Shown here in pieces: positions 2,204 through 24,288 of a stretch of 38,288 bases of DNA; positions within the stretch are counted from its first letter, which is position 1, and every line of letters begins with the position of its first letter. Source of the stretch: Pseudomonadota bacterium (GTDB lineage Bacteria > Desulfobacterota > JAZDOA01); NCBI GenBank assembly GCA_043799175.1, contig JAZDOA010000151.1:1-38288 (forward strand), written 5' to 3'. The position numbers and the translations under genes are program-made. Below the pieces are notes generated by a model, which ran no database searches, was not told the origin of the DNA, and was given only the letters and a program-made list of their open reading frames with translations.

Positions 2204-2214
2204 GGGAGGAAGCA

Positions 2215-5370: not shown

Positions 5371-5588
5371 GACACTGGCCGGAACGTGCGCCCGGTTCTC
5401 TCAAAGAAGTCCGCGGCACATTCGGCGCCCGCAAAAAACGGCCCTGCCGCCGTGGCGGTATTGTCTCCACGCACGTGGGGGTGAACCGAAAGAGGAAAAG
5501 CCCTAACGAATAGAAGGGGAAGAGAAAATAGAACAGACTTTTGCCAGGCGTTTCTACGCCTTGCCCGCACTTGTCTAGGCCGCGTCAA

Positions 5589-5619
5589 TTGACAAGGGGG
5601 TCCCCTCTGTCGTAAAAAT
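5589..5619 (+). promoter_or_regulatory. Candidate sigma70-like promoter upstream of zorA (TTGACA, 18-19 nt spacer, TAAAAA/AAAAAT)
   Basis: TTGACA at 5589-5594 and an A-rich -10-like hexamer at 5613-5619 in the 260-nt res-zorA intergenic region. The -10 match is weak. Confidence 0.25.
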
Positions 5620-5645
5620 GTACAGTTTGTTTGGCGGGAGGGTCG

Positions 5646-7580
5646 ATGTCCTTAGCTGGTCTGCTCCAATACTCCTGGACGATACTCGGGATTTCTGCTC
5701 CATGGTTCGCCTGGGTAGCAGCCCCAGCCATCTTCCTTCCCGTCGCTTATCTGCTTTGGAAGCTTCGGGACAGGACTCTGACCGCCGGACAACGCTGCTC
5801 GCAGTTCGCAACCAAGCTGGATGAAGTTCGGAGTCGCAGTGCCCGGAGGCCGGGCACTGGGCTGTCAGGCGAGGAGATGGAGGCCATAACACAGGTCTTC
5901 CTTGACAACGAAAGTTTCAAGGAACCCTGGCAAAGATACGAAGCGACCTCGATCATTCGCCTTACTCACGACGGCGCCGATTCCTTCTGGGCCGCCGAAA
6001 GTGCCGCCGATGCCTTCGATGAACACTCGCTCTTCGATGAGGGCATCAACAAGCAATTCTATCAAGCGGTCCCTGGGCTGGCCACAAGCGTGGGCCTCTT
6101 CTTCACCTTCTTGGCCATCCTGGTGGCCCTGATGGAGGTCCGCTCCGATGGTATCAAGGTTGCGGGGTTGTCGGGGCTGATCAACGGGCTTTCAGGCAAA
6201 TTCCTTACCTCCGTCGCCGCCCTGCTTGCGGCATCCATCTATCTGCTGGCCGAAAAACCCGTCTGGCACAGACTGACTCTAGCCCACCGTTCCCTGATCG
6301 ACGCCATCGACCGGAGCGTGCCGCGCCTCACCCCTACCCGCCTGCTCGCCAACCTCGACCGGCAGATGACGGAGCAGACCAACGCCTTCCACAGCTTCAA
6401 CACCAGCTTGGCTATCAAACTGCAGGAAAGCTTCAGCACGAGCATCGGACCCACCCTGGAGCGGATGGTCGAGTCCATTGAAGGCCTCAATCAATTTCTC
6501 AAACAAGCCGAATTGGCCCGCCAAGAAACGACCACTGGGGAAATCAAGCGGCTGCTCACGGACGTGGAACAATCCATGTCCGCTACCCTGGCGAGCATGG
6601 GGAAGCAGTTCTCGGATTCCCTCTCCGGCGACGTGCGGGGGCAGTTCAACGGCATTATCGAATCACTGGATAAATCAGCCTCCGTTATTGACAAGATGAA
6701 CAGCCAGTTGGAAGGCACGCAGGAGGCCATGAAGGCCATAGCGCAGTTGGCGAAGGAGTCCACGCTGGAGCAAATCAGTCAGGGTAGGAAACAGTCTCAG
6801 GACGTCGCCGAAGTGCTGACCGCATTGATGACCCAAATGAAGGAGGCAACCGGAGTCTCGGCCAACAACATGCTTTCGGCCATGGCTGTGGCCACGGAAA
6901 GCCTGGCTCAGAAGGTGGACTACATAAGCGACCGGATGTCTCAGCTCATCCAGGAGAGTACCGGCCAAGTCAACAAGACGGCCACGGAGGTCATTGAAAA
7001 ATCGGACCAGGTTTCAGAAGCCAACATGCGTCGCCTCACCGCGCTGCTGGAAAGGTTGGATAATCACGCCGACCAGACTGCGCGTTTGAAGCTGCTGCTC
7101 GACGAGGCCATGGGCAATCTCACCAAGGTCCTGGTCCAATACGCGGAGATCAGCAAAGATATTTTCGGCGCGACATCCAACTTCAGCCTGACGGCCAACT
7201 ATCTGAAGGGTATATCCTCCGAGGTGAAAGACACCCAGACATCTATTCGCGAGGTCTCGGAGCTCTCCGCCCGCCAGGTGGACAGGCTTGAAACGGCGTG
7301 GAAGCATGTTGACGTGACGACATCCGCAATTTCAAACTCGATGAATGACTATCAAAGGGTGTTTGATGTCGTTAAGGGTTCCTCGCAGAGCCTACTGGAT
7401 ACTATCGCGACTCATATGAATCAGTACTCTGATACCACCCGAAACCACTTTGACAGCTTGGTATCCGTGGCCAATGGACACATGACCGAAGCGGTCGGCA
7501 AACTTCGCAACATAATTGGGGAACTTGACGAGAGCATCAGTGATCTCAGTGATGCATTGTTGAAGGTTCCCAGGCGTTAG
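5646..7580 (+). CDS. zorA: ZorA (Zorya type I; MotA/ExbB-like proton-channel protein with long C-terminal coiled-coil tail)
   Basis: N-terminal TM helices. MotA/ExbB/TolQ-like channel region 'QFYQAVPGLATSVGLFFTFLAILVALMEV...GLSGLINGLSGKFLTSVAALLAASIYL'. About 420 aa of low-complexity heptad-like sequence follow, rich in Q/E/L/S, matching the ZorA tail. ATG 5646 follows a GGGAGGG Shine-Dalgarno sequence; the track ORF begins at TTG 5631. It is the first gene of a four-gene cluster. Confidence 0.7.
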   Translation: MSLAGLLQYSWTILGISAPWFAWVAAPAIFLPVAYLLWKLRDRTLTAGQRCSQFATKLDEVRSRSARRPGTGLSGEEMEAITQVFLDNESFKEPWQRYEATSIIRLTHDGADSFWAAESAADAFDEHSLFDEGINKQFYQAVPGLATSVGLFFTFLAILVALMEVRSDGIKVAGLSGLINGLSGKFLTSVAALLAASIYLLAEKPVWHRLTLAHRSLIDAIDRSVPRLTPTRLLANLDRQMTEQTNAFHSFNTSLAIKLQESFSTSIGPTLERMVESIEGLNQFLKQAELARQETTTGEIKRLLTDVEQSMSATLASMGKQFSDSLSGDVRGQFNGIIESLDKSASVIDKMNSQLEGTQEAMKAIAQLAKESTLEQISQGRKQSQDVAEVLTALMTQMKEATGVSANNMLSAMAVATESLAQKVDYISDRMSQLIQESTGQVNKTATEVIEKSDQVSEANMRRLTALLERLDNHADQTARLKLLLDEAMGNLTKVLVQYAEISKDIFGATSNFSLTANYLKGISSEVKDTQTSIREVSELSARQVDRLETAWKHVDVTTSAISNSMNDYQRVFDVVKGSSQSLLDTIATHMNQYSDTTRNHFDSLVSVANGHMTEAVGKLRNIIGELDESISDLSDALLKVPRR

Positions 7581-7582
7581 TC

Positions 7583-8236
7583 ATGGCTGGTGGCGATCAT
7601 AACTCGGGACTGGCGAATTCCTTCACAGATCTCATGACTTCCCTGGCGGTCATATTCATCCTGCTGTTGTGCGCCTCGCTCAACAACGCACAACAGGAGG
7701 GACAGAACGTCAGGGCCGCCATCATCGCGGACTTGCAACGCGAACTGCAATCGTTCTTCAAGCAAGGGGTGGAGGTCAAGAAAGACCCGCGCGACCCCCT
7801 GGGACTCATCGTGCTCGTGCCGGAAGGGCTGTTGCAGTTTGCCTTGAACGATGACAACATTCCCCAAGAAGGCAGGCGGTTCCTCAACGCATTTATCCCC
7901 AAGCTCGCCTCGACCATGCTTTCTCCAAGGTTTAGAGATGACATCAATTCCGTAGTAGTAGAGGGACATACCGACTCTTCCGGCACCGATGCAATCAATC
8001 TGCCATTGAGCCAGCGCCGCTCGCTGTCCGTGGTCATGGAGAGCCTCGGAGTGCTCGACGGAGACGCCCGAATGTGTTTCCTCAAGCTGCTTTCCGCAAG
8101 CGGCAGGGGCAGCATGGAGCCGTTCATCGACACCAAAACCGGGCATGAAGACATGGGCAAGAGCCGGCGGGTCTTTTTCAAGATAAGGGTTCGCTCCCTG
8201 GAGCAGAAGACAATCTATAAGTATATTGACTCATAA
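7583..8236 (+). CDS. zorB: ZorB (MotB-like; N-terminal TM helix plus OmpA-family peptidoglycan-binding domain)
   Basis: 217-aa ORF starting 3 nt after the zorA stop. TM helix 'LMTSLAVIFILLLCASL'. OmpA-like core 'VVVEGHTDSSGTDAINLPLSQRRSLSVV' (GHTD...G...N..LS..RA pattern). Confidence 0.75.
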   Translation: MAGGDHNSGLANSFTDLMTSLAVIFILLLCASLNNAQQEGQNVRAAIIADLQRELQSFFKQGVEVKKDPRDPLGLIVLVPEGLLQFALNDDNIPQEGRRFLNAFIPKLASTMLSPRFRDDINSVVVEGHTDSSGTDAINLPLSQRRSLSVVMESLGVLDGDARMCFLKLLSASGRGSMEPFIDTKTGHEDMGKSRRVFFKIRVRSLEQKTIYKYIDS

Positions 8237-8255
8237 AGCTTCTTAGGGGCCATGC

Positions 8256-9623
8256 ATGATCAGCCTTGAGACCTTCCGTCAGACCGAACAACTATTGAGG
8301 GCCAACCTGAAAGACCTCTCACCCGAGACTATTGCTAACTGGCCGACGACGCCCGAGACGCGGCTGAAAGACCTGGCGGCCGTGGTCGCCAGTCTCGACG
8401 TCTTGGGAATGCCTTCCCGTCCTCCCCGCACGCCCGATTATTACCTGCGGGAGTGGGCAGACTACATCGGCGGCCGCCATGACCTCAGTCCAGCCGCCTT
8501 TCGCCACCTGTGCTGGGAACCGGACGTGGCCACCTCGGAACCCTTCCTGTTATGCCTTCAGGCCGACAGCAAGAGGGTTTTGTCCCGCAAAGGGCTGCGA
8601 GGACTGGCATACAGCATCCACGCCTTGTGGTCGAAGCGCGGGTCATTGGGCGATTCCGTAAAGCTGATACGGCAGTTCCTGCGCGATTATGCGGGCTTTG
8701 ACACGGCCATCAACAAGTGGCGGACAAACATCGACTCGCTCTTCGACCTTGAGGCCCACCACGCGCTGGCCGCCCGGCTGCTGGAACAGGGCCAGAAACC
8801 AGACGCCTTCTTTCGCGAGCATTCTCTGTTCCCTTACACCGAGTTCTATTGGGCGGTGCTGCAGGCGGCCATAACCAATTCCCTCGAAGCCATGAGGCGC
8901 GCTTTTTTTTGGCACACCCACCGGTTGCCATCTCTGCTTGAGTACTGCCTGGATCTCCTCTCCGAGGAAGAGCTTCCAACCGCACTTTTCAAGAATACAA
9001 TTGCCCAGATCATCCTAAGCCCGGCGATGGAAAACCAACCTCTGGCCGACCGCGTCAAGGAATACGTACTGGATCATAAAAAGTTGGGCGACCCGCGCCT
9101 TCGGCATAACGGCATACATTGGGCCGGAATTGATGAGGCCGCCAAGGACAAGATTGTCCAATGGCTCTCCAGGGCAGACATCATCTTCTTTTTCGAGCAT
9201 GTCATGCAGCGGGGAGAGGACCGCCACGGCCGGAAGGACTTCTGGCTAAGATACGAAAAGAAGTTCCGGAACACCAGATGCCTTCTCTCCCCCAATGACA
9301 AAGCCCGGTTGAGTTCCGTATTCCATCGGCGTGAATCTCGAATAGAGGGTTACGGGAGCGTGCGCGGTGGCCTTAACCAAAGCGCCTTCCTGCTGGACTT
9401 TGGCTCGGTACTGGCCATCGAGTTTCACAAGGTTGGGGCATGCTACGTCTATAAGCGTCCTGCCCTTCCAGACGTACTGCAAAGCGGCTTGAGAAGTTCG
9501 GAGCACTTCTGGGAAGGGGAACTGAAGGACCAAGATGCCGCTGCTGACCGCATTGTTCATCGCCATGGTTGGCAGGAAAAGATGGCTCAGTGTCTCGCCA
9601 GGCACCAGATCTGGGCCGGATGA
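8256..9623 (+). CDS. zorC: ZorC (EH-signature-domain protein of type I Zorya)
   Basis: 455-aa ORF sitting between the MotAB-like pair and the SNF2 protein, as in type I Zorya. It contains Glu-His dipeptides in conserved-looking contexts ('FFREHSLFPY', 'FFEHVMQRGEDRHG'). It has no other recognisable catalytic motif, so the assignment rests mainly on synteny. Confidence 0.5.
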   Translation: MISLETFRQTEQLLRANLKDLSPETIANWPTTPETRLKDLAAVVASLDVLGMPSRPPRTPDYYLREWADYIGGRHDLSPAAFRHLCWEPDVATSEPFLLCLQADSKRVLSRKGLRGLAYSIHALWSKRGSLGDSVKLIRQFLRDYAGFDTAINKWRTNIDSLFDLEAHHALAARLLEQGQKPDAFFREHSLFPYTEFYWAVLQAAITNSLEAMRRAFFWHTHRLPSLLEYCLDLLSEEELPTALFKNTIAQIILSPAMENQPLADRVKEYVLDHKKLGDPRLRHNGIHWAGIDEAAKDKIVQWLSRADIIFFFEHVMQRGEDRHGRKDFWLRYEKKFRNTRCLLSPNDKARLSSVFHRRESRIEGYGSVRGGLNQSAFLLDFGSVLAIEFHKVGACYVYKRPALPDVLQSGLRSSEHFWEGELKDQDAAADRIVHRHGWQEKMAQCLARHQIWAG

Positions 9624-12600
9624 AGAAGATGGCTTTTCAGCACGATACAAGCTCTCATATTCTGGTTTTGGACCGGCCTGCCCCAGGAGTAGAGGTGCAG
9701 GCCCACTCCGATGCCCTGCGCCTGGTTTCGGCCACCTGTGATTTCGGAGACCGTGACCAGCTTGCGGCTCTTTCCGCGTCGTCACGGACTCATCTTGGCC
9801 GTTCACTCCAGTTTCTCCTGCCGCAGATCCTCGAACTGGGCCGGGCCAACCTGGAAGAGGCCGGCCGCATAGCCATCCCCTACAGCGACCTCTACATCCT
9901 TGAGGATGAAGGCCTGCGAGCCTTCGAGCCGTTGGCCGCTTGGGCACCATTCATGGTGGAACTCTCCTCGACCGGGTCGGTGGGAACTTCTTCTTTCCGT
10001 TACATTTGCCGCCTCTACGTAGGGGCCAGGCAAGTCTTCCCTCGACGCGTGGGGGCATTCGTGGATCTTCAAGGACGCCTCTTGCGACTCGACCGCTCCA
10101 GCTACGCGTTGATCGAGGCGGTGGAGGAAGCCAACAGCCTGCCCGCAGCCGAAAGAAACGCGACAGATGCCCTTCGCAGTTTGGCCCAGATAAGAGGCTT
10201 GGCGGAGGAGATCGGCGTCCAGCTCGACCGTTACCTCGCCCAGGAGCGAGTGATCATTCCCGCTGAGGTTGGAGTCGGTATCGAGGAAGATCATAAGGGA
10301 CGCATCTCCTTCGTTCCTCAGATCGACGGAGTGCCCGATGACGCGTTGAAGCGCGACTTCCTCGCCCGTGACGACACGGGCGTCTATTCCCTCACCCATC
10401 CTGACGGAGGCCAGCTGCGGGTTGTCTTGGGACCCAAGCAAAGAGAGGCGCTTAACAGAATGCGCTGGGTCCGCTTGCTTTCCGGGGAAGCCAAAGCCCG
10501 CGTGCTGGCCAACCCGGCCGCCACCTTCGAGGGACTCCTCGATGATGTCATCCGTATGGACGGCCTAGGGCCGAGAGTCAAAGACATTGGCAACTTCCCC
10601 TTCATTGTCCGTCCCCGCATTTCTTACGGCGTTCTCGACGGCATCCTGGGGAGCGCGCAGCCGCAGCACAAGTTGCCGCGCGCTGGCCTGGAAATCGTCT
10701 CAGTTGACGCCTCCACCGGCGAAAGACACACGGAACACGTCGACTTTGCCAACGAGAAGGAACGTCAGGAATTCACTCAGCAGGTGAAGGACGCCGCACG
10801 GACGGGACAAGGCTGTGTCCAGTTTCGAGACCTGACCGTGCAGGTGGAACCCGAACTCCTCAAGGGACTCGATGAATTGGAGCAGCGGCTAGCTCGGCCA
10901 CCACGTGGTCTCAAGGAGGAGCAGGAGGATCAAGGCCGCTATCTGCTGATCTACACGAACGAGGAGGAAGTCGACTATCCCGGGCAGGGAGAAGGAGAAG
11001 CGCCAGGGCCAGTACCCTCCGCCCCCATCTTCGAGCCTCCGCAGGCTCTGCTGGACACTGATACTCTCACCAAATACCAGCAAGCAGGAATCGCCTGGCT
11101 ACAACTTAACTATCGGCTCAAGGGCCGGCGGGGATGCTTGTTGGCCGACGACATGGGTCTGGGCAAGACTCTTCAGATCCTCAACTTCGTGGCTTGGCTG
11201 ATTGAGCAGGGCTCTCTCCTGGAGAAGCCAGGGGACGCCTCAGAACTCCCGCCCTGGAATCCAGTGCTCGTTGTGGCGCCGGTCATGCTGCTCGAGGTGA
11301 AAACCTGGGTCAAAGACATGCAGTGTTTCTTCCGGCATGAAGGCAATGTATTCCAGCCATACCTGGTTCTACATGGACAAGAACTTCAACGGCTGCGCCA
11401 AGACGGGGTCCGTGGCCGGGAAACCCAGCTGGGTGAGCCAATCCTCGACCTGGAGAAGTTGCGTAGCCATCGCGTCGTTCTCACGAACTACGAAACCGTG
11501 GTTAACTACCAACATTCGTTGGCTCGCATCAAGTGGGCAGCCGTCGTGACCGACGAGGCGCAGGAGTTCAAGACGCCCAGCACCAAAATCTCTCATGCTC
11601 TGAAGAGCCTCGATCCTCGCTTCCGCGTGGCCCTTACGGGCACCCCCGTGGAGACCCGTCTTTTGGATGTCTGGAACATATTCGACTTTCTCCAGCCAGG
11701 CCATCTGCGCAGCGCCAAGGAATTCTGCGATGACTACGAAAGACATCTGGAGGATGATAGCGCGTGCTCCGACGCGCTGAACAGGCTAAAGAAGAGTCTG
11801 GCGCATGGGGAGCCTGACGCCTTCATTCTGAGACGCAATAAAACAGAGTTGAAGGATCTGCCTCCCAAACATGAGCACGAGATCTACTGCCAGCTCTCCG
11901 ACATCCAGCGCCAGCACCACCTCGACCTCGTCCGTCAGGCCGGCACGGGAGCCAGTCATCATTTCAGTCTGCTCAGCAGCCTGATGTTCCTCTATCAGCA
12001 TCCTGATTTGGAGTTATCGAGGGATAGGATGCTCGACCTTCCTGCACAGACGCTGGTGGACCGGTGCCCGAAGCTGTCGGCCACCATTGAAGTCTTATCG
12101 AAGATACGGCGTGCCCGTGAAAAAGCGCTCATTTTCACCCGCAGCATCGTCATGCAACAGGCCATAGCCAAGGTTCTTGGGGAGACATTCGGCCTCAATA
12201 TCGACATCATAAATGGGGCCACCAAGCGCCACAGCCCCCGCGCCAGCGTCGCGACGCGCGAACAAATACTCCAAAGATTCCGTGAGCATGTCGGCTTTCA
12301 CGTCCTCGTGCTCTCACCCGAGGTAGCTGGTTTGGGCCTGACTATTGTCGAGGCAAATCACGTCATCCATTATGGCCGCTGGTGGAATCCGGCCAAAGAA
12401 TCACAGGCGACCGACAGGGTTTATCGCATCGGCCAGAAAAAGGATGTACACGTCTACTACCCAATTGCCCAAGACCCACTTGGGCAGTTCAAGACTTTCG
12501 ATGAAAAGCTCGACGACTTGCTCAAACGCCGGCGCCAATTGGCCACCGACTTCTTGATGCCCATTCCGGATGAGGAGCGCCTGAGCAGGGAACTGGCCGA

Positions 12601-13120
12601 AGGAATTCTGTGCGAGCATGAAGGAGATCGGGGCGAGGTCAGGCCCCTCAATATGCACGACATCCCCGACCTTGCCTGGGATAGGTTTGAGGCTTTGGTG
12701 GGGCTGCTTGAGCACAAGCAGGGGCGCCAAGTCATACTGACCCCGCGGGCGGGAGACCAGGGCATAGATGTCATTGCCGCGGACGGCAACGATGTAAGGC
12801 TTATCCAGTGCAAGCACACTGCTGGCTACAATATTCACGACGAAAGCGTAGCCGAGACTATCGAGGCATTCGACGGCTACCGCGCGAGGTACCTGCGCGG
12901 CAAGAGTCCCTGCAAGCTAATCCTCTCCACCAATGGCGGCTTCACGGAGAGCGCTGGCTCCATGGCGTACCTACGCGGCGTTCAGCTTGTTCCAGGCGCT
13001 GATCTGGAGCGGCTGCTTGATGCTTATCCGGTCACTTTCGCCGAAATCGAGACATTCGCCCAACGCCGTTGCAAGACCATGAAAGAGGTGCGTGCGGCCA
13101 TTCAGGGCTGGCGGCTTTGA
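9620..13120 (+). CDS. zorD: ZorD (SNF2-family ATPase with C-terminal Mrr-like PD-(D/E)xK nuclease domain)
   Basis: SNF2 motif I 'LLADDMGLGKTLQ', motif II 'VVTDEAQEFK' (DEAQ box), and a helicase C region 'ALIFTRSIVMQ...GLGLTIVEANHVIHYGRWWNPAKESQATDRVYRIGQ'. The C-terminal ~130 aa 'VILTPRAGDQGIDVIAADGNDVRLIQCKHTAGY' resembles the Mrr catalytic (type IV restriction) fold. ATG 9620 overlaps the zorC TGA as ATGA; the track ORF begins at 9569. Confidence 0.75.
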   Translation: MKKMAFQHDTSSHILVLDRPAPGVEVQAHSDALRLVSATCDFGDRDQLAALSASSRTHLGRSLQFLLPQILELGRANLEEAGRIAIPYSDLYILEDEGLRAFEPLAAWAPFMVELSSTGSVGTSSFRYICRLYVGARQVFPRRVGAFVDLQGRLLRLDRSSYALIEAVEEANSLPAAERNATDALRSLAQIRGLAEEIGVQLDRYLAQERVIIPAEVGVGIEEDHKGRISFVPQIDGVPDDALKRDFLARDDTGVYSLTHPDGGQLRVVLGPKQREALNRMRWVRLLSGEAKARVLANPAATFEGLLDDVIRMDGLGPRVKDIGNFPFIVRPRISYGVLDGILGSAQPQHKLPRAGLEIVSVDASTGERHTEHVDFANEKERQEFTQQVKDAARTGQGCVQFRDLTVQVEPELLKGLDELEQRLARPPRGLKEEQEDQGRYLLIYTNEEEVDYPGQGEGEAPGPVPSAPIFEPPQALLDTDTLTKYQQAGIAWLQLNYRLKGRRGCLLADDMGLGKTLQILNFVAWLIEQGSLLEKPGDASELPPWNPVLVVAPVMLLEVKTWVKDMQCFFRHEGNVFQPYLVLHGQELQRLRQDGVRGRETQLGEPILDLEKLRSHRVVLTNYETVVNYQHSLARIKWAAVVTDEAQEFKTPSTKISHALKSLDPRFRVALTGTPVETRLLDVWNIFDFLQPGHLRSAKEFCDDYERHLEDDSACSDALNRLKKSLAHGEPDAFILRRNKTELKDLPPKHEHEIYCQLSDIQRQHHLDLVRQAGTGASHHFSLLSSLMFLYQHPDLELSRDRMLDLPAQTLVDRCPKLSATIEVLSKIRRAREKALIFTRSIVMQQAIAKVLGETFGLNIDIINGATKRHSPRASVATREQILQRFREHVGFHVLVLSPEVAGLGLTIVEANHVIHYGRWWNPAKESQATDRVYRIGQKKDVHVYYPIAQDPLGQFKTFDEKLDDLLKRRRQLATDFLMPIPDEERLSRELAEGILCEHEGDRGEVRPLNMHDIPDLAWDRFEALVGLLEHKQGRQVILTPRAGDQGIDVIAADGNDVRLIQCKHTAGYNIHDESVAETIEAFDGYRARYLRGKSPCKLILSTNGGFTESAGSMAYLRGVQLVPGADLERLLDAYPVTFAEIETFAQRRCKTMKEVRAAIQGWRL

Positions 13121-13312
13121 GCGAGTTTATTCCAGCGACTCAGCCCCCCGCTGCCTAAACAAGCCGACTACTGCAATGCGAGGATTCTTGGCTCTCTATT
13201 CCTGGGGCTCATCGTAAGCGCTTAACCACTCCCCCCAATGAACCCACAGTAGCAAAATGGTAGCGACGAAGAAGGGCGACCCGAGCCGCCCCTTGGCAAC
13301 CGCTTGATTTTC

Positions 13313-13377
13313 TGGTCATGGGCCAGGCGCGCGCGCCCCTCAGGCACCCTCCTCGGCTAACGGCAGCCCGACGAAGA
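13313..13377. repeat. Direct repeat copy A (65 nt, ~89% identical to 15540..15604); relic of the histidine-kinase 3' end
   Basis: 'tggtcatgggccaggcgcgcgcgcccctcaggcaccctcctcggctaacggcagcccgacgaaga' matches 15540..15604, with 7 mismatches in 65. The minus-strand reading ends '...LPLAEEGA-stop', the same as the C-terminus of the HK gene at copy B. Confidence 0.8.
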
Positions 13378-13492
13378 CCGCACCACCGGAGTGGGCACCG
13401 GCCCCGTAGAATTGCCGCAACCCGAGGACCGGATCTGGTATGTTCCTTGTGAGCTGCAAAATGCCACTTATGTCCGCACACCTGGAGGAATC

Positions 13493-15508
13493 ATGCTGGA
13501 TCTGTTTTATGCTCACCTGACACTGGTCAGCACCGTCGCGACCGGCCTCGTGATTCTCGGCTATTATTCGATCGTCATCGTCTCCGGCAGGGAACTGGCG
13601 GTGCTGGAACGGCGCTGGTGCGGCAGACAGATGCCGCAGGGGCGCGTCGTGGCCATGGGAGACGAGGTCGGCATCCAGGCCCGGACCCTGGGCCCCGGCC
13701 TGCACTTTCTGCTACCCTTCGTCTACGCGGCGCGAAAGTACCCCTTCGCCGAGATCAAGGACGGCGAGATCGGCATCGTGGAGTCTATCGACGGCAACCC
13801 CATCCCGCCGGGTCGGATTTTTGCCCAGGTGGTGGAGGGACACAACGCCTTTCAAGACGGCGAGGTCTTCCTGAAGAACGGCGGCCAGAAAGGCCCCCAG
13901 ATCCAGATCCTTTCCCCAGGGAAGTACCGGATCAACCCCTACCAGTTCAACGTCACCAATGGGGAGGCGGTCGTCGTCGACAAGGGTAAGGTGGGTGTCG
14001 TCGCCGCCATGGACGGCAAGAGCATACCCGCCGGGAGGCTCCTGGGGCAGCGCGTCGCCGAGCACTCCAATTTCGAGAACGGCCAGGCCTTTATCGAGAA
14101 CGGCGGGCAGAAGGGGCCGCAGATCGACATCCTGCAGCCGGGGACCTACCGCATCAACCTAAACCAGTTCGAGGTGGAGATCCACGACGCCACGGTAATC
14201 CCGGCCAACAACGTCGGCCTGGTGACCGCCCTCGACGGCAATCCGCTCCCGGAAACGGAGTACATCGCCAAGTCGGTCTCCGGCCACGAGGACTACCAGG
14301 ACGCCCAAAAATTTCTCTTCGCCGGCGGCCAGCGCGGGCCACAGCTCAACATGCTGCGGCCGGGCACGTACTACATCAATCCCCTCATGTTCAAGGTGGA
14401 GCTCGACGACGTCACCGTGGTGGAACGGGGCCAAGTGGCGGTGGTCATCTCCAACGTGGGGGAAGAGCCGACCGCGGAAATGAAGCGGCGCCTGAGCGCC
14501 TCCCAGACCAATACGCTGACCGAAGAGGAGGCCAGGGAGCGGTACGTGGTTCCCGAGGGGTACCGCGGCATCCAGGAGGAGGTGGCCGGCCCTGGACGCT
14601 ACTACCTCAACAAGCGGGCCTTCATCCCGTACATCATTGACACCACCAACATCACCATAGACTGGGACAGCGCGGCGGACACCCGCTTCGATCCTCTCAA
14701 GGTGATCTCCAAGGACGGCTTCCCGATTGACGTTTCGGTCAAGGTCGTGGTCCGCGTCCGGCCGGATCAGGCCCCGTACATGGTCGCCAAGGTCGGCTCC
14801 GCGGAGAACCTCATCCTCCACGTCATCCACCCCATGATAGACTCCTCGTTCCGCAACCAGGCCTCGTCCACCTCGGCCATGAACTTTCTGCAGAACCGCC
14901 AGGAAGAGCAGGTCCGCGCCGAAGACCGGGCCCGTGCCAGCCTGGAGAAGTACCACGTGGAGTGCGTATCCGTCCTCATCTGCCAAATCAACCTGCCCCA
15001 GGACCTGATGGAGACCCAGACCAGGCGGATCATCGCCGAGCAGCAGAAGGAGATGTTCGCCATGCAGCAGGAGGCCGAGGCGGCCAGAATCTCCACCGAA
15101 AAGACCCGCGCCACCGCCGACCAGCAGGGTGAGCTGGTCAAGGCCGAGATCGGGGTGAAGGTCGCCGACCAACAGAAGCAGAAGACCATCGTCCTGGCGC
15201 AGGGGGATGCCGAGGGGATACGGCTGCGCGGCGAGGGCGAGGCGAGGAAGATCGAGGCCATCGGCCAGGCAACCGCCCAGGCCTACCGGGAGCAGAATGC
15301 CGCCCTTGGTCAGGAGGCGATTACCGCCATCGAGGTGATGAAGAAAGTCGCCGAGGGCAATATCCGCATCACCCCCGATATTCTCGTCGCCGGCGAAAAC
15401 GGGGGCCTCCTCGACGTGCTGCTGGCCCAGTTAGTCAAGAAGGGTTCTCTGCCGGATGCGGTTGAACCCGGCAGGCACTGCAAGGCAAGGGTGATGGAGG
15501 CGGAGTGA
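13493..15508 (+). CDS. Flotillin/SPFH (band-7) family membrane protein with N-terminal tandem ~73-aa repeats
   Basis: GGAGG Shine-Dalgarno sequence then ATG 13493; TM helix 'LTLVSTVATGLVILGYYSIVIV'. Three clear plus one degenerate repeat unit '...G(V/I)V..DG.(P/S)IP.GR.....V.(G/E)H..F..G..F..NGGQ(K/R)GPQ...L.PG.Y.IN...F.V'. The SPFH core is '...KVISKDGFPIDVSVKVVVRV...HVIHPMIDSSFRNQASS'. A flotillin-type EA-rich coiled-coil C-terminus follows: 'QQKEMFAMQQEAEAARISTEKTRATADQQ...'. Confidence 0.7.
   Translation: MLDLFYAHLTLVSTVATGLVILGYYSIVIVSGRELAVLERRWCGRQMPQGRVVAMGDEVGIQARTLGPGLHFLLPFVYAARKYPFAEIKDGEIGIVESIDGNPIPPGRIFAQVVEGHNAFQDGEVFLKNGGQKGPQIQILSPGKYRINPYQFNVTNGEAVVVDKGKVGVVAAMDGKSIPAGRLLGQRVAEHSNFENGQAFIENGGQKGPQIDILQPGTYRINLNQFEVEIHDATVIPANNVGLVTALDGNPLPETEYIAKSVSGHEDYQDAQKFLFAGGQRGPQLNMLRPGTYYINPLMFKVELDDVTVVERGQVAVVISNVGEEPTAEMKRRLSASQTNTLTEEEARERYVVPEGYRGIQEEVAGPGRYYLNKRAFIPYIIDTTNITIDWDSAADTRFDPLKVISKDGFPIDVSVKVVVRVRPDQAPYMVAKVGSAENLILHVIHPMIDSSFRNQASSTSAMNFLQNRQEEQVRAEDRARASLEKYHVECVSVLICQINLPQDLMETQTRRIIAEQQKEMFAMQQEAEAARISTEKTRATADQQGELVKAEIGVKVADQQKQKTIVLAQGDAEGIRLRGEGEARKIEAIGQATAQAYREQNAALGQEAITAIEVMKKVAEGNIRITPDILVAGENGGLLDVLLAQLVKKGSLPDAVEPGRHCKARVMEAE
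13748..14410 (+). repeat. Tandem intragenic coding repeats (about 3 x 220 nt) inside the SPFH gene
   Basis: Three units are visible in the translation: 'GEIGIVESIDGNPIPPGR...NGGQKGPQIQILSPGKYRINPYQFNV', 'GKVGVVAAMDGKSIPAGR...NGGQKGPQIDILQPGTYRINLNQFEV', and 'NNVGLVTALDGNPLPETE...AGGQRGPQLNMLRPGTYYINPLMFKV'. Coordinates are approximate. Confidence 0.55.
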
Positions 15509-15539: not shown

Positions 15540-15604
15540 TGGTCATGAACCAGGCGCGGGATTCCCTCAGGCACCCTCCTCGGCTAACGGCAGCTCGACG
15601 AAGA
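15540..15604. repeat. Direct repeat copy B (65 nt); it is the functional 3' end of the histidine-kinase gene
   Basis: Same 65-nt sequence as 13313..13377. It covers the last 12 codons and stop of the minus-strand HK gene plus about 25 nt downstream. Confidence 0.8.
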
Positions 15605-17174
15605 AGGTGGTTCCCTGAGACGGCTCGCTCTCGGCCCAGATGCGGCCGCCGTGGCGATCCACGATGCTCTTGGCGATGTAAAGCCCCACGCCGAGGCCGG
15701 CATAGACGGCCTGCTGCGGGCCGGGCTTATAGAAACGCTCGAAGATATGGGGCAGATGCTCCGGGGCGATGCCGATCCCCTCGTCGCGCACATCCACGAG
15801 GGCGCGCCCGTCGTGGTGGCGTGCCTGCATCCAGATGCGGCCTCCCTCGGGGCTGTACTTGATGGCGTTGTCGAGCAGATTGGAGAAGACCTGCTCCAGC
15901 CGCACCGGGTCGCCCTTCACCACCAACGGCTCCTCGGGCGGACAGAAGACGAGGCGGTGATCAAGAATGGGCCGTTCGCAGACCGCCCTGACGACCTTGG
16001 TCAGATCGAGTTCCCGGAGCTCGACGGGCATGCGGCCCATCTCCAGCCGCGAGACCTCCAGCAGGTCGTTGACGAGTTGCACGAGCTGATCCGTCTGCCT
16101 CAGCAGCCTGGTCACTATGTCCCGGCTGAGCACCTCGGGCCGGCGCAGGGCCAGCTCGCTGAAGATCTTGATCGACGTCACGGGGGTCTTCAGTTCGTGA
16201 GAGGCCATGGAGAGGAACTCGTCCTTGAGGCGGCTGGCCTCCTCTATCTTCCGCTGGACCTCCTTCTGGGCGGTGATGTCCCAGAAGACGACCACGGCTC
16301 CCGTCCTCTGTCCACCCACGACCAGGGGCAGGGCGGTGCAGATGACGGGCACCAGCCGGCCGTCGGCCCGCACGAGCGTCTCCTCCCAGCCGATCGTGGC
16401 CTCGCCCTGCAAGGCCTTGAAGATGCCGAGCTCCTCCGGCGCCAGCGCCCTTCCCTTCGGGCAGAGCACCTTCCAGGTCTTGCCATAGTTCGTGAGGTCC
16501 TTGACCTCGTCCCGGCTAAGCCCAATCAGCCGCTCGACGGCCTCGTTGACGAGGACGATCCGTCCGTCCGCCGCGGCAATGAGCACGCCCGCGGGCAACT
16601 GGTCGAGGATGGCGGCCAGCCAGTCGGCCCTCTCCTGCTCCCAGAGCGCCAGCTCCTCGGCCTGGCGCCTGGCGTTTGCCAGCTCCTCGGCCCGCCGCTG
16701 TTCGGTGAGGTCGGTCACGACCATGCAAAAACAACTGTTTTCTCCCAGGGGCAGGGGGCTGACCGACACCAGGGCGGGCAACACTCCGTCGCCCCTACGG
16801 AACCGGATCTCGCCGCGGCTGCCGGACGGGCCACGGGAAAGCAAAGCCGACAGGGCAGCCGTCTCTTCCCAAACCGCGTGCCGCTCAAGCGGAGAGCCGA
16901 TCACCTTCTCGATCGGCAGGCCGAGCATCTCGGCCAACCGGCGGTTGCAGTAGAGGATGGTGCCGTCCGCGGCCAGGGTGGCGGCCCCCTCGCTCATGGC
17001 CTCTACCAGAACCTGGTAGGCGCGGTCAGCCCCCTTGAGGGTATAGACCTGGTCGCCCACCACCAGGGCGTCCACCTCGCCACCCCGGATGGCCGCAATC
17101 GTCTCCTCCGCCTCGCGCAGGCGCTCCATCATCTCCTCGATCTCGCTGCGCGGCGTGTCTTCGTTCTCAGGCAT
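15567..17174 (-). CDS. Cytoplasmic PAS-domain sensor histidine kinase (probable output kinase of the KaiBC module)
   Basis: 535-aa ORF with no TM segment. An N-terminal coiled coil is followed by PAS-like segments. The HisKA H-box is 'EFLSMASHELKTPVTSI'. HATPase_c motifs are 'NLLDNAIKY', 'DEGIGI' and 'GLGVGLYIAKSIVDRHGGRIW'. The ATG start overlaps the kaiB stop by 8 nt. Confidence 0.85.
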   Translation of the reverse strand: MPENEDTPRSEIEEMMERLREAEETIAAIRGGEVDALVVGDQVYTLKGADRAYQVLVEAMSEGAATLAADGTILYCNRRLAEMLGLPIEKVIGSPLERHAVWEETAALSALLSRGPSGSRGEIRFRRGDGVLPALVSVSPLPLGENSCFCMVVTDLTEQRRAEELANARRQAEELALWEQERADWLAAILDQLPAGVLIAAADGRIVLVNEAVERLIGLSRDEVKDLTNYGKTWKVLCPKGRALAPEELGIFKALQGEATIGWEETLVRADGRLVPVICTALPLVVGGQRTGAVVVFWDITAQKEVQRKIEEASRLKDEFLSMASHELKTPVTSIKIFSELALRRPEVLSRDIVTRLLRQTDQLVQLVNDLLEVSRLEMGRMPVELRELDLTKVVRAVCERPILDHRLVFCPPEEPLVVKGDPVRLEQVFSNLLDNAIKYSPEGGRIWMQARHHDGRALVDVRDEGIGIAPEHLPHIFERFYKPGPQQAVYAGLGVGLYIAKSIVDRHGGRIWAESEPSQGTTFFVELPLAEEGA

Positions 17175-17532
17175 CCTTACTCTCGCGACCTTTCTTCGGC
17201 CTGATGTCCAGGCCCACCAAGACCCGCCCGGTGTCGGACATGTCTCCGATCAGCTTGCGCAGCGGGGCCGGGAGTCTCTTGACCAGCGTGGGGACGGCGA
17301 TGATCTGTTCCCCCTCGAGCAGCACCGGCTGCTGATAGATGTCGATGACCTCCAGGTCGTAGCGGCCCTTCAGGTGCTCCTCGCAGATGACCTTGATGTT
17401 CTCGATGGCCTGCCTCGACCGAGGGGTGGCCCCGGCTACATAGAGACGCAGGATGTAGGTCCCGCCCTGCCCTTCCTCTCCGGCGAGGGCAGACTCGAAG
17501 CGCCTGGTGGAATCGGGGTGGTCGTAGGTCAT
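17167..17532 (-). CDS. kaiB: KaiB-like protein (copy 1, thioredoxin-like fold)
   Basis: '[83 protein letters not shown]' is a canonical KaiB core. Its ATG (17532) forms an ATGA overlap with the stop of upstream kaiB copy 2. The track ORF, which begins at 17610, appears over-extended. Confidence 0.8.
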
Positions 17533-17822
17533 GGTCTGTCCCCTTTCGGGCGCGGGTCGAGGCCGACCAGCACGCGCTCGGTGTTCGACAGGTCGCCGAT
17601 GATCTTGCACAGCGGCGGAGGGAGCTTCCGGACCAAGGTCGGGATGGCCACGATCTGGTCTCCCGCGGCGAGCTGGGGACGCTCAAGCAGGTCTATCACC
17701 TCTATGGTGTACTGGCCCTTCAGGTGCTCCTCGCAGAGCTTCTTCAGATTGGCGAAGGCGGCCAGTGACCTGGGAGTCTGCCCGGCCACGTAGAGCCGCA
17801 GGTGCCACTGCTCCTTCTCCAT
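17529..17822 (-). CDS. kaiB: KaiB-like protein (copy 2)
   Basis: 97 aa, '[72 protein letters not shown]'. It is a paralogue of copy 1 and shares a 22-nt identical DNA stretch with it ('cccttcaggtgctcctcgcaga'). It lies 7 nt downstream of the kaiC stop. Confidence 0.8.
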
Positions 17823-17828
17823 ACCGCG

Positions 17829-19574
17829 TCAGCCCTCCTTTTGGGGGCCGGAGGGCAGCTCCTCCCGGAAGCACGTCTCCCTCCGCTCGACCATGGTCCG
17901 CCGCTCCTTGGTTTCAAGCTCCCCTCGCAGCCGCACCTCATCGAGGAAGCGGTCCATTTCGTCCTCTTCGGCCGCCAGCGCGGCCTCCAGCGCGGCCATC
18001 CGGGTCCGTATGGCCAGGCGCCGGCGCTCCAGGGCACGCCCGCGGCGCGCGACTTCCTGCTCGCGAGCGGCGACCTCGGCCCGCTCCTTGGCCTCCTGGA
18101 CGGCCCGCGCCGAGCCGGAGAGCACACCCCGCGGCCCGACATAAACCGGGGACAACTCGATACCCCGGTCGGTGAGCAGGAACTCGCGCATCTGGTTGGA
18201 GTGCTTCATGCCCCGTGACTTAAGGACGTGGATGTGGCGGTTGCGCTCCCCGTCGGTCTCGACGTCACCCAGCACGATCCAGGTGTCCATCAGCGAGGAG
18301 ATGCCCACCTCGGTGGCCTCGAGGGCCAGCCCACCGGATGTGAGGTTGGTGAACATGCCCGTGATCTGGTGCGTCTTGAGAAAGTCGATCAGCCGCACGA
18401 GCATGGACTTGACGTCCAGAGTTCCGTCACCCGCCGCGAGGCTGCTGATGGGGTCGATCGCGACCACCGCCGGCTTGAACTCCGTGGCCACGCGCTGCAT
18501 CGAGAGCAGGTGCTGCTCGATACCCGTGAGGCTGGGGCGGGTGGCCTCGAAACGCAGCAGGCCGGCCTTGACATGGCGTGGGAGGTCGAGTCCGATCGAG
18601 GCCATGTTGCGCATGATCTGGGCGGGAGATTCCTCGAAGGTGTAGTAGACGGCCCGCTCGCCCCGCTGGCAGGCCGAATCGACGAAGCAGACCGCCAGGC
18701 TGCTCTTGCCCGTGCCCGCCGTGCCAGACACCAACACGCTCGAGCCGCGGTACCAACCCCGCCCCCCCAGCATTTCGTCCAGGCCCAAAACACCCGTCGA
18801 GACGCGGTGGCGCGAGACCTCGTAGCAGAGACCCAGCGAGGTGACGGGCATGACCCAGACGCCGTCCTCGCCGATGAGGAAGGGGTACTCGTTGGTGCCG
18901 TGTACGGAGCCACGGTACTTCGCCACGCGCAGGCGCCTGGTCGAGACCTGCTCGTGGACGCGGTGGTCGAGCAGAATGACGGCATCGGAGACGTACTCCT
19001 CCAGGCCGTGGCGGGTAAAAGCGGCCGAATCGCGACCCCGTTCGGCGGTGATGATGGCCGTGATGCCCCGGTCCTTGAGCCAGCGGAAGAGGCGCCGGAT
19101 CTCGGCCCGCAGGATCATCTCATTCGGCAGCCCGGAAAAGAGGGCCTCCAGGGTGTCGAGCACGACGCGCCTGGCCCCGATGGAGTCTATGGCGTGGCCC
19201 AGGCGCACGAAGAGGCCCTCGAGGTCGTACTCGCCCGTCTCCTCGATCTCGCTGCGCTCTATGTAGATATAATCTATCAGGAGCTTCTTCCGCGCCACCA
19301 GCCCGGCCACATCCCAGCCGAGGGAAGAGACGTTCCTGACCAGGTCCGCGGCCGACTCCTCGAAGGCGACGAAGACCCCCGGCTCCTCGTACTCTTGGGC
19401 GCCGCGCACCAGGAACTCCATGGCCATGAGGGTCTTGCCCGAACCCGCCCCGCCGCTCAGGAGGGTGGGCCTGCCCTGGGGCAGTCCGCCGAAGGTGATC
19501 TCGTCAAGGCCCCTGATGCCAGTCGGGGTCTTAGGCAGCCCCCGCTCCGAGGGGGTGATGGACTCCTCCGCCAC
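17829..19574 (-). CDS. kaiC: KaiC (double RecA-like P-loop ATPase/autokinase)
   Basis: 581 aa. CI Walker A 'LLSGGAGSGKTLMAMEF' and CII Walker A 'VLVSGTAGTGKSSLAV', in the typical duplicated KaiC architecture. GTG start 19574 is preceded by a GAGGAGG Shine-Dalgarno sequence. Confidence 0.9.
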   Translation of the reverse strand: MAEESITPSERGLPKTPTGIRGLDEITFGGLPQGRPTLLSGGAGSGKTLMAMEFLVRGAQEYEEPGVFVAFEESAADLVRNVSSLGWDVAGLVARKKLLIDYIYIERSEIEETGEYDLEGLFVRLGHAIDSIGARRVVLDTLEALFSGLPNEMILRAEIRRLFRWLKDRGITAIITAERGRDSAAFTRHGLEEYVSDAVILLDHRVHEQVSTRRLRVAKYRGSVHGTNEYPFLIGEDGVWVMPVTSLGLCYEVSRHRVSTGVLGLDEMLGGRGWYRGSSVLVSGTAGTGKSSLAVCFVDSACQRGERAVYYTFEESPAQIMRNMASIGLDLPRHVKAGLLRFEATRPSLTGIEQHLLSMQRVATEFKPAVVAIDPISSLAAGDGTLDVKSMLVRLIDFLKTHQITGMFTNLTSGGLALEATEVGISSLMDTWIVLGDVETDGERNRHIHVLKSRGMKHSNQMREFLLTDRGIELSPVYVGPRGVLSGSARAVQEAKERAEVAAREQEVARRGRALERRRLAIRTRMAALEAALAAEEDEMDRFLDEVRLRGELETKERRTMVERRETCFREELPSGPQKEG

Positions 19575-22597: not shown

Positions 22598-23401
22598 GTG
22601 GAGCCTGACCGAGTGGACAACATAATCCAGTTCTCGCTGGCCACGGCGCGCTGCGTCCATGACGACGACAAGATGCTCCAGGACCTGGGGCCAATCCATC
22701 TGATCAAGTATGTGTACCTGGCCGACCTGGCATATGCCGAGAAGCATGGTAGAACCTATACTGAAACCAATTGGGTATTTCACCACTTCGGCCCATGGGC
22801 CGCCGAGGTTTATCAGCGTCTCGACCTAGCGACACAGGCTATCCATGCGGATAAGAAGCAGATCGAAAGCCGCTATAGTGAGGATTTCACCCGTTGGCGT
22901 CTCGATAACTACGAAGACGCCGTTCGTGTAAGAGAAGAGCATTCCAAGAACTTGCCTTTTGAGATTACAAGCGTCGTTCAACACGCCGTGAAGGAATATG
23001 GCAATGCAACAACTGACCTTCTTCACGACGTCTATCTCACATTTCCGATGTTACACGCAGCGCCTGGCGACGAGCTGGACTTCCGCAGCGTGCAGGAAAG
23101 ACCTGAGCCTGAGCCACCTGCTGCTGAGCCTGTACAGGTCAGCCGGAACGCAATGAAGAAGCGCAAGCAGCGCCTGGAAGAAGCACGCCGCCGCTTCGCC
23201 CAAAAGGCTGCCGAACGTTCACGCGAGAAGGCGGCAAGGAGGGCAGCTCAGGCCCCCCCGCGCTACGATGATGTTTTCGATGAGGGAACACGGGTTCTCG
23301 ATGAGCTTGCAGGCCCGCCGCTTGAGGTTCAAGACGGAATTCTGGAATTCAGCGACGAGATATGGAAGTCACCGATACGCACGGGTGAGGATGACGGGTA
23401 A
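22598..23401 (+). CDS. Panacea-domain (DUF4065, SocA/PanA-like) putative antitoxin with charged low-complexity C-terminal region
   Basis: The N-terminal ~130 aa 'NIIQFSLATARCV...PIHLIKYVYLADLAYAEKHGRTYTETNWVFHHFGPWAAEVYQRL' fits the Panacea consensus (..LKLQKLLY.A......G......F.A...GPV...vY). The C-terminal half is a K/R/E/A-rich linker-like sequence. GTG start. Confidence 0.55.
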   Translation: MEPDRVDNIIQFSLATARCVHDDDKMLQDLGPIHLIKYVYLADLAYAEKHGRTYTETNWVFHHFGPWAAEVYQRLDLATQAIHADKKQIESRYSEDFTRWRLDNYEDAVRVREEHSKNLPFEITSVVQHAVKEYGNATTDLLHDVYLTFPMLHAAPGDELDFRSVQERPEPEPPAAEPVQVSRNAMKKRKQRLEEARRRFAQKAAERSREKAARRAAQAPPRYDDVFDEGTRVLDELAGPPLEVQDGILEFSDEIWKSPIRTGEDDG

Positions 23402-23410
23402 CTGCCACAG

Positions 23411-24103
23411 GTGAACACGATCCAGGACCTGGTAGATCCATGGTGGGAGGTTGCCGAGCCAGCCAAGCTTCAGGCTGGTCGCCTTGCGAGGACTTTTGTG
23501 CCCGTCCCGGACGTTGTTACCCGTGGGGTGGTCCTGGAGGGTCGCGAAGACGCCCGTAATCACACCACTGCAAGGTTCAGGGTCGAGCCCATTCAGGCAG
23601 GTCGGTCACCAAGCTTGTCATCACTACCCGTTGCGGCGCTACCTGCGCACCCTGGGGAGTCCTATATCGCCCAACGAGGAAAGAGGCGACCTGTGCTCAT
23701 TCTCTCCATGGGCGGCTTGGAGATTCCGAAAGCCGTGTCTCACGGTGGGCCTGGGTACCAGCGAAAGCCGTGCGTGCTTGTAGTGCCTTTTTATGGCGGA
23801 GACCAGGACGGCAGCAGAGCTGGCTTCTCGCCGGAATTCGTGGAGCGCATCAAACGGATAGAGTATCCGCAGTATATCGCCGACACGCTACCCCTCGGCA
23901 ACCTAGCCATGTCCATCATGCGGCTTGACCACGTCTTGGCAGTCGGATGCGCTCCAAGCAATTTTGAGCTGATGCCGCACCGGCTGAGTAACGATGCCTT
24001 GGAACTGGTCCTGGATTGGTTCCGTTGGCTGGTTGAGGGGTCTCTCCCAACCGGAAGTCTTCTTGAGTGGGCTCGTTCCGAGCTGATGAAGATGAATGCA
24101 TAA
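23411..24103 (+). CDS. Uncharacterised 230-aa protein coupled to the Panacea gene; possible MazF/PemK-like (SH3-barrel) toxin fold
   Basis: Starts 10 nt after the Panacea gene stop, with a GTG start. Segments 'GRLARTFVPVPD', 'KRRPVLILS', 'CVLVVPFYGG' and 'SIMRLDHV' are spaced like MazF/PemK strands ('GdIwlVdfdP', 'khRPalVlS', 'vvvvPiTs'), with a ~50-aa insertion. This is a weak by-eye similarity only. Confidence 0.35.
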   Translation: MNTIQDLVDPWWEVAEPAKLQAGRLARTFVPVPDVVTRGVVLEGREDARNHTTARFRVEPIQAGRSPSLSSLPVAALPAHPGESYIAQRGKRRPVLILSMGGLEIPKAVSHGGPGYQRKPCVLVVPFYGGDQDGSRAGFSPEFVERIKRIEYPQYIADTLPLGNLAMSIMRLDHVLAVGCAPSNFELMPHRLSNDALELVLDWFRWLVEGSLPTGSLLEWARSELMKMNA

Positions 24104-24288
24104 GGGAGTACAGTTCTTCCCATGTATTCTGTGATCCTATCCTCTGACCTTCCGGCCCAGGTGCAGTCCTTCTTTTCGCGCCCTGACAACACAATACCCC
24201 CGGCAGTTTTTCACCGCCGAGGGTAGCACCGAAGTAGCACCATGTTTTCTGTTGGGTTCACTCTGGCCACCCAACTACTTGTTTTTAT

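Follow-up and report, generated by a model that had tools for sequence, protein, structure and literature searches.

In a 38,288-nucleotide (nt) stretch of contig JAZDOA010000151.1, which we call the window and to which all coordinates below refer unless stated otherwise, the gene at 13493–15508 (+ strand, stop codon included; open reading frame (ORF) and translation) encodes a 671-amino-acid (aa) protein of the SPFH superfamily with an array of small repeat units in front of its SPFH core. The reading we favour, and regard as rather probable, is that this is a membrane-anchored SPFH protein whose first SPFH subdomain (SPFH1) has been amplified to five tandem copies, and that it would work as a cage-forming scaffold facing the cytoplasm, with a vault-like wall and no role in defence. 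From a structural model, the repeats are predicted to share the fold of the wall repeats of the eukaryotic vault particle. The family to which the protein belongs is large, unnamed and bacterial.

Architecture of the protein and its family

The protein begins with its single hydrophobic segment, at approximately residues 4–31 (13502–13585, +; Kyte-Doolittle windows > 1.6), which may be a transmembrane helix or a re-entrant hairpin; a helix spans residues 2–26 in the structural model described below, and the segment overlaps the start of the first repeat unit. Lys and Arg together average 3.8 in the 20 residues after the anchor versus 0.2 before it, and 178 of 179 single-anchor family members are enriched after the anchor, a charge distribution that predicts the bulk of the protein to lie on the cytoplasmic side.

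Within the array, a GGQ[KR]GPQ motif recurs at residues 130, 204 and 278 with an exact period of 74 aa (222 nt), a PG.Y.IN motif recurs at residues 142, 216, 290 and 367, and the same 222/222-nt spacing is seen at the DNA level (repeat family D2). Three canonical 74-aa units on the + strand account for the first motif: R1 (residues 85–158; 13745–13966; GGQKGPQ at 130), R2 (residues 159–232; 13967–14188; GGQKGPQ at 204) and R3 (residues 233–306; 14189–14410; GGQRGPQ at 278). Their pairwise identity is 41–47%. On either side lies a diverged unit. R0 (residues 27–84; 13571–13744, +) is short and all-beta in the model, and it can be aligned to the canonical unit over its full length but for a 17-aa gap at the helical insert, which it lacks; R4 (residues 307–391; 14411–14665, +) has a longer helical insert of low confidence. 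When compared with the unit profile (MAFFT, hhalign), R0 gave a probability of 76% (E 2e-5) on clean columns and 96–99.5% on a diverse alignment, and R4 gave 84% and 97.6–98.3%, respectively; taken together, the two diverged units scored about 92–99% on the diverse alignment, while a control with the SPFH2 core gave ≤1%. The window protein therefore holds five units in all.

With the C-terminal strands of R4, which are equivalent to the SPFH1 subdomain, the Pfam Band_7 match begins (residue 352, profile position 2). Because R4 overlaps the Band_7 start, the array can be read as having arisen by copying of the beta subdomain at the N-terminus of the SPFH domain itself: from sequence, it looks like an amplified part of that domain rather than a foreign insert placed before it. 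The original prediction had described an extra array of three to four repeats of about 73 aa inserted between the anchor and the SPFH domain. An array does lie there, but its period is exactly 74 aa, five units are counted once R0 and R4 are recognised by hhalign, and the overlap of R4 with Band_7 speaks against a foreign insertion.

Band_7 (PF01145) itself covers residues 352–530 with 93.3 bits against a gathering cut-off of 23.6, and it was also matched in 58 of 60 diverse family members; this match and the hydrophobic anchor bear out the earlier assignment as an SPFH/flotillin-like membrane protein. The SPFH2-type alpha/beta core (residues 392–502; 14666–14998, +) is followed by one or more long C-terminal helices (residues 503–621; 14999–15355, +; model helices 503–604 and 610–621), equivalent to CC1/CC2 of SPFH cages and to the cap helix in major vault protein (MVP), so that the alpha/beta fold and the long coiled-coil helix of the SPFH superfamily follow each other in order. 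Searched against Protein Data Bank (PDB) sequences, this helical region matched the helices of HflC and flotillin-2 at E 5e-4 to 0.02. A low-confidence tail (residues 622–671; 15356–15505, +; predicted local distance difference test score (pLDDT) < 50) closes the protein; its final ~20 residues are not common to the closest relatives, and DNA similarity to them ends at about 15444–15449. Two NCBIfam HflC models scored far below threshold (24.6 bits versus a cut-off of 427 and 20.5 versus 134.4), and no flotillin- or YqiK-specific model was found among the Pfam and NCBIfam matches at E ≤ 1, which consisted of Band_7 and the weak HflC hits.

The repeat units matched no Pfam, NCBIfam or PADLOC model, and the unit profile gave chance-level matches only against PDB sequences (NagJ and ColH; E ≥ 0.1). 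The original prediction had allowed that the units might belong to a common, already annotated domain; structurally they are of the SPFH1/MVP-repeat type, but no annotated sequence family covers them. Across diverse units, 13 positions are invariant (D16-G17, V30, H33, F42, G47, G50-P51-Q52, P58-G59, Y61 and F68 of the unit alignment; window residues 85–306). Nothing in MVP repeats obviously corresponds to the conserved His and the GGQxGPQ loop; these could mark a lateral interface or a ligand site.

A search with the whole protein returned > 5000 matches, generic SPFH proteins among them. The closest relatives are Geobacteraceae proteins of ~675 aa with 78–88% identity and the same 3+2 units; versions of ~770 and ~835 aa carry 4+2 and 5+2 units and keep the 74-aa period throughout (Geomonas, Syntrophus, Paludibacterium, Chitinilyticum). 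Database names of the relatives go no further than 'SPFH domain-containing', 'YqiK' or 'HflC'. With the unit profile, a search of 1.84 billion cluster representatives (50% identity clusters) yielded 1302 clusters at E ≤ 1e-3, 697 at E ≤ 1e-10 and 153 at E ≤ 1e-30, with 2–14 matched unit stretches per cluster. The units stand upstream of SPFH in every full-length member with an SPFH-profile match, usually after one to three N-terminal hydrophobic segments. In a collection with one genome per species we confirmed 411 loci, distributed over Desulfuromonadota, Nitrospirota, Bacteroidota, Ignavibacteriota, Acidobacteriota, Verrucomicrobiota, Myxococcota, Spirochaetota, Planctomycetota, Chloroflexota, Bacillota and others; across phyla, members are 59–68% identical to the window protein.

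The largest members, P0121 (1802 aa, from the cyanobacterium Symploca sp.), P0122 (1793 aa) and P0123 (1638 aa), place 12–14 units before the SPFH domain, and P0121 and P0123 end in a VWA domain. The units of these giants sum to a misleading whole-protein score for Pfam CshA_repeat (E 1.6e-13), with no single stretch significant. Separately, one Nitrospirota metagenome-assembled genome (MFD00991.bin.2.105) carries two family loci, L022 and L024; because of this, some organisms may hold two paralogues and thus possibly form hetero-oligomers, by analogy with HflK/C or flotillin-1/2.

The summed CshA_repeat matches in many-repeat relatives, some with a C-terminal VWA domain, together with the weak scores of the window protein itself for Pfam Big_14 and DUF1236 (E 0.06–0.08), would fit an extracytoplasmic, adhesin-like stalk, in which the repeats would be Ig-like or CshA-like surface modules that expose the C-terminal part to the cell exterior. 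All of these matches, however, are below cut-off or lack a significant individual stretch, and we rejected all three families as annotation for this reason. Given in addition that no signal peptide or cell-wall anchor was seen, that the charge bias points to the cytoplasm, and that the structural matches are to MVP and SPFH proteins rather than to Ig-like adhesins, we regard such a stalk as very improbable.

Predicted fold and a possible cage

An AlphaFold2 monomer model was built from 94 sequences, including representatives down to 26% identity. It reached a mean pLDDT of 86 and a predicted template modelling score of 0.69, with 10-residue block means > 90 over residues 11–330 and pLDDT < 70 after approximately residue 540. 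A model from 44 close homologues (pLDDT 53) was not used; it was the divergent sequences that raised the pLDDT to 86. In the model, each canonical unit folds into a small beta domain that includes one short helix. When the model was compared with the PDB by Foldseek, ranks 1 to 11 were all MVP (E 6.5e-15 to 3.5e-12, ~720–810 aligned columns), followed by prohibitin (4e-12), HflC (2e-10), erlin/stomatin (7.5e-10 and weaker), flotillin (~2e-8) and QmcA (5e-8). The crystal fragment of MVP repeats R1–R7 (3gf5_B) was matched at E 2.4e-6 with a template modelling score of 0.48, about five consecutive repeats superposing on R1–R7 at 4.3 Å. The model thus puts a tandem MVP-repeat fold, a shoulder and a cap helix in the same order as MVP (PDB 4V60, 3GF5, 9Z4W, 9R86). 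Structure prediction of the array had been suggested as a check in the original prediction, and it gave small beta domains; the top matches of the model are MVP and then SPFH proteins.

How might such a protein work? The solved SPFH proteins all form rings or cages, with lateral packing of the SPFH domains and a dome built from the long helices (PMC12624060). By analogy with every one of them, subunits of the window protein would line up next to each other in a closed oligomeric ring or cage, which would be located on the inner membrane, facing the cytoplasm. Its stacked repeats would then build a tall beta wall, five domains high, reaching from the membrane to the SPFH ring and comparable to the R1–R9 barrel of MVP, and the number of repeats (2–14 in the family) could act as a ruler that sets the height of the enclosed space. 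A housekeeping or stress-related scaffold of a membrane compartment is the most likely function.

Several points weigh against this reading. The cage would be an extrapolation from other SPFH proteins, the model at hand being that of a monomer, and the fold is a network prediction from a program whose training included MVP structures. The published regression (subunit number = 0.1782 x CC1 length + 10.22; PMC12624060) applied to the 102-residue helix (503–604) would give ~28 subunits, a rough value better read as some tens, and the helix behind this estimate has a pLDDT of 50–70, may merge CC1 and CC2 in the monomer model and is therefore of uncertain length. The cytoplasmic orientation has the positive-inside rule as its sole basis. 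With respect to the absence of a defence role, the gene lies directly 3' of zorD, a gene of the Zorya defence system, on the same strand; with respect to a scaffold, no conserved partner or cargo gene was found among 80 homologous loci. Finally, the likeness to MVP does not extend to sequence in any comparison made. The Pfam Vault repeat models (PF01505, PF17794-6) and MVP_shoulder (PF11978) gave no match at E ≤ 1 in the window protein and none at E ≤ 0.1 in 60 relatives; hhalign of the whole family or of a single unit with an MVP alignment gave probabilities of 1.4% and 0.4%; a hidden Markov model of 930 units scored ~0 against 120 MVPs in hmmsearch; and the unit compared with each of MVP R1–R9, with pooled repeats and with the shoulder stayed at ≤2.3%.

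The true MVPs retrieved carry all five Pfam Vault/MVP_shoulder models. The profile comparison, for its part, used an MVP profile from vertebrates only (the MVP query is 100% identical to primate MVP), and it also missed the link between the SPFH core and the MVP shoulder. Since these two are placed in one Pfam clan (PMC12962969), the profile test against MVP has low power. By sequence criteria, then, the window protein is not an MVP, while in fold and module order it is MVP-like.

This combination leaves room for two views of the vault likeness. The bolder is that the family forms membrane-attached 'half-vault' cages, with an MVP-type barrel wall, an SPFH ring and a helical dome, whose height would be set by repeat number; the family would then be a prokaryotic sister or precursor of the vault and the missing intermediate between membrane SPFH cages and the free vault. 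We hold this to be doubtful. The other keeps the same architecture and function and takes the repeats as a lineage-specific amplification of SPFH1, the likeness to the vault having arisen by parallel evolution and not through specific kinship with MVP. Both flanking units, R0 and R4, show detectable homology to the canonical ones, and R4 corresponds to the usual beginning of Band_7; the copy number of 2–14 in the family shows ongoing internal duplication; there is no sequence signal between the unit and MVP repeats. Moreover, the 'MVP repeat' group in ECOD covers the single N-terminal domain of ordinary archaeal SPFH proteins, which have a repeat-shoulder-tail architecture, and the eukaryotic vault has been read as elaborating this architecture with tandem repeats (PMC13607799); given this grouping, any amplified SPFH1 would appear vault-like. 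Set against parallel evolution are the first rank of MVP in the whole-chain Foldseek search and the superposition of about five repeats on R1–R7, which implies that the geometry between repeats is shared as well, although convergence is still compatible with it. On balance, we give parallel evolution close to an even chance.

Genomic setting and the defence question

The SPFH gene follows a block of defence genes. A type III restriction-modification (R-M) system (323–5370; Mod, 323–2203; Res, 2692–5370) is directly followed by a complete Zorya type I system (5631–13120) with ZorA (5631–7580), ZorB (7583–8236), ZorC (8256–9623) and ZorD (9569–13120), the two blocks together spanning 323–13120. 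As listed, with a TTG start at 9569, the ZorD ORF shares 55 nt with the end of zorC, and the true ZorD start therefore probably lies further downstream. On the other side, a PAS-PAS histidine kinase gene (15567–17174, –; stop codon 15567–15569) converges on the SPFH gene, and beyond it lies a gene for a double-domain KaiC-like ATPase (17829–19574, –). The original prediction had placed the SPFH gene between Zorya and KaiBC. The R-M system, Zorya I, the kinase and KaiC were confirmed, but no KaiB was detected in the window.

Given this position, the SPFH protein might be a working part of the Zorya or type III R-M system beside it, or an accessory to one of them, for instance by scaffolding ZorAB in the membrane or by sensing envelope damage. 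We sampled 80 homologous loci from many phyla and their 145 immediate neighbours. The window protein had no match in PADLOC-DB 2.0, and, within 8 kb, none of the 80 loci has a homologue of the window Zorya (ZorA–D) or type III R-M genes. When every ORF up to 6 kb away was clustered, these loci showed no conserved neighbour, the largest cluster, an unannotated one, being present at 15 of 80. PADLOC families among the 145 neighbours (E ≤ 1e-10) were represented by one or two proteins each, a comparison made with no genome-wide background rate behind it, and the neighbours' Pfam content was heterogeneous and of housekeeping type (155 families, none in more than three proteins). In the closest relatives, the surrounding genes are those for thioredoxin, AhpC and haem biosynthesis. 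A terminator-like hairpin also stands at the zorD stop (13101–13121), though such matches are no commoner than in shuffled sequence (4 found versus 2.1 expected). There are thus no conserved or defence-enriched neighbours, 'no enrichment' being our judgement from low counts. The SPFH protein is most likely not a component of the adjacent Zorya system, and we consider an accessory role there quite unlikely. The earlier suggestion of a defence or phage-defence component accordingly found no support, nor did homologues show any association with defence islands in the 80 loci.

The same survey bears on another alternative, a periplasm-facing protease regulator of the HflK/C or stomatin type, in which the repeats would be a spacer that holds the SPFH ring off the membrane and gates a protease. 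A candidate partner is a Peptidase_C13 (legumain/caspase-clan) gene encoding ~490 aa, found directly 3' of the SPFH gene in the two closest Geobacteraceae loci: L001, at 12093–13556 of that locus with a gap of 56 nt, and L004, at 7116–8594 with an 8-nt overlap. Its product could serve the SPFH protein as a protease partner, in the manner of stomatin-NfeD or HflK/C-FtsH. The gene is, however, absent from the window and rare elsewhere, these two loci being the only ones in which it is adjacent; NfeD, FtsH and Peptidase_C13 are all outside the 25 most frequent of the 155 neighbour Pfam families, which leaves room for rare cases, and no NfeD-type gene flanks the SPFH gene in the window. A paired hflK/hflC gene is likewise missing, the HflC scores are far below cut-off, and the charge distribution predicts a cytoplasmic rather than a periplasmic bulk. 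A protease regulator is therefore unlikely, and a cytoplasm-facing scaffold remains the reading we prefer.

As for the start of the gene, the ATG at 13493 is preceded at a distance of 4 nt by a Shine-Dalgarno-like GGAGG (13484–13488, +; read from the sequence), and the N-termini of homologues coincide with its Met. A longer start at a GTG (13391) was rejected since homologues begin at the ATG-equivalent position and the GGAGG precedes the ATG. The resulting 671-aa sequence is identical to an NCBI entry named 'SPFH domain-containing protein'. A sigma-70 promoter scan around the gene gave no match.

Two copies of a 65-nt direct repeat (repeat family D1, 89% identity, spacing 2227, no strand assigned) flank the gene. 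Copy 1 (13313–13377) lies upstream and duplicates the 3' end of the histidine-kinase gene together with its downstream flank; copy 2 (15540–15604) overlaps the true 3' end of that gene, and the SPFH gene is therefore bracketed by a duplicated kinase terminus. A 31-nt exact core within the repeat occurs in two copies in the window, with 0 expected and no third. DNA similarity to relatives is confined to the coding region (13484–15449), the flanks being common to no relative, and GC content is 53–62% in the R-M/Zorya genes, 61–64% in the SPFH gene and 66–67% in the kinase and KaiC genes, with 65–71% in the housekeeping part of the window (26–35 kb). This suggests that the SPFH gene was acquired by recombination at the direct-repeat site. 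No recombinase or other sign of mobility was found and no empty site was retrieved; the histidine-kinase relatives in metagenomes, sought for an empty-site comparison, had ≤35% identity. Of the 'mobile-looking cassette' described originally, the direct repeat is real, while further signs of mobility are lacking.

Some other features of the window may be recorded. A 169-aa ORF (17177–17686) between the kinase and KaiC has no Pfam match even at E 0.05. Further along, at 22598–24364, a gene for a SocA/Panacea-domain protein (22598–23401) and an unannotated 230-aa ORF (23411–24103) adjoin a tRNA-Lys(CTT) gene (24289–24364, –); the two could make up a toxin-antitoxin system located where a tRNA-linked island ends, and no integrase was seen. 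At 26092–30926 (–), a gene for an AAA_27/SMC-like ATPase of 1169 aa shares 4 nt with one for a metallophosphoesterase of 442 aa, an arrangement like that of SbcCD/YhaNO; the GC content there is ~70%.

Relation to known SPFH proteins and to the vault

The window protein is a member of the SPFH superfamily, but it is neither HflK/C nor a canonical flotillin or YqiK, nor, by sequence, MVP. HflK/C, QmcA, stomatin, prohibitin, erlin and flotillin each have one SPFH1 subdomain, whereas the window protein has five in tandem and its relatives up to 14. HflK/HflC and Flot1/2 are paired paralogues and the window gene is single; it also differs from these membrane SPFH cages in having neither NfeD nor FtsH among its common neighbour families and in its HflC scores. 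FloT/FloA and YqiK come closer: an N-terminal anchor, a predicted cytoplasmic bulk, an SPFH domain and a helical tail rich in Ala, Glu and Gln are common to them and the window protein, and some relatives are labelled 'YqiK'. These proteins belong to the SPFH2 subfamily (Hinderhofer et al. 2009, PMC2636767) and are encoded in an operon with an NfeD-type gene, YqiJ/YuaF (PMC2636767). The window protein, in contrast, matches no flotillin-specific model, its family has NfeD (YqiJ/YuaF-type) outside the 25 commonest neighbour families, and the literature examined does not describe a tandem repeat array in FloT or YqiK.

With MVP, the window protein shares the module order of the model but no detectable sequence similarity. 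MVP repeats are ~55 aa long and nine in number; the window protein has five, and its unit is 74 aa long with a short helix and a conserved DG...H...GGQKGPQ...PGxYxIN motif. The window protein and most of its relatives carry an N-terminal membrane anchor, in which they differ from the soluble, membrane-free MVP; among SPFH assemblies, it is the vault that is the exception in having no membrane association (PMC12624060). Unlike for the vault, there is no evidence of a closed two-half particle, of RNA or of partner proteins for the window protein, which is known here from its sequence and model.

Prokaryotic MVP homologues have been reported before. In bacteria, they include Moorea/Lyngbya F4Y3B4 and Saprospira H6L4P8 and are described as few (PMC3595041, PMC3762200, bioRxiv 10.1101/872010), and ten Asgard homologues, one modelled with five repeats, were put forward as evidence of a prokaryotic origin of the vault (PMC12962969). 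Like the window protein, these combine several repeats with a shoulder and a helix, and in the Asgard case the number of repeats, five, is the same as well. They are, however, recognisable as MVP to BLAST or Pfam, or came out as reciprocal best hits in structural comparison, while the window family is missed by MVP sequence models; and against a few bacterial and ten Asgard proteins stand its 1302 clusters of usually membrane-anchored members. In the literature searched, whose coverage is incomplete so that an earlier description is possible, we found no account of bacterial SPFH proteins that carry vault-like repeats in tandem.

The vault has been described as having no clear prokaryotic ancestry (PMC12962969). 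What the present analysis adds is a much larger bacterial family, with 1302 clusters and 411 loci in many phyla, that has a repeat-shoulder-helix architecture with 2–14 repeats; that one genome has a member next to Zorya is not evidence for a role in defence. If these proteins do form cages, cultured hosts such as Geomonas, Oryzomonas and Paludibacterium would offer a tractable bacterial model for the building of vault-like walls, and the natural series of repeat numbers would lend itself to tests of size control. With the family, one could then also test directly if barrels of the vault type originated from membrane SPFH cages.

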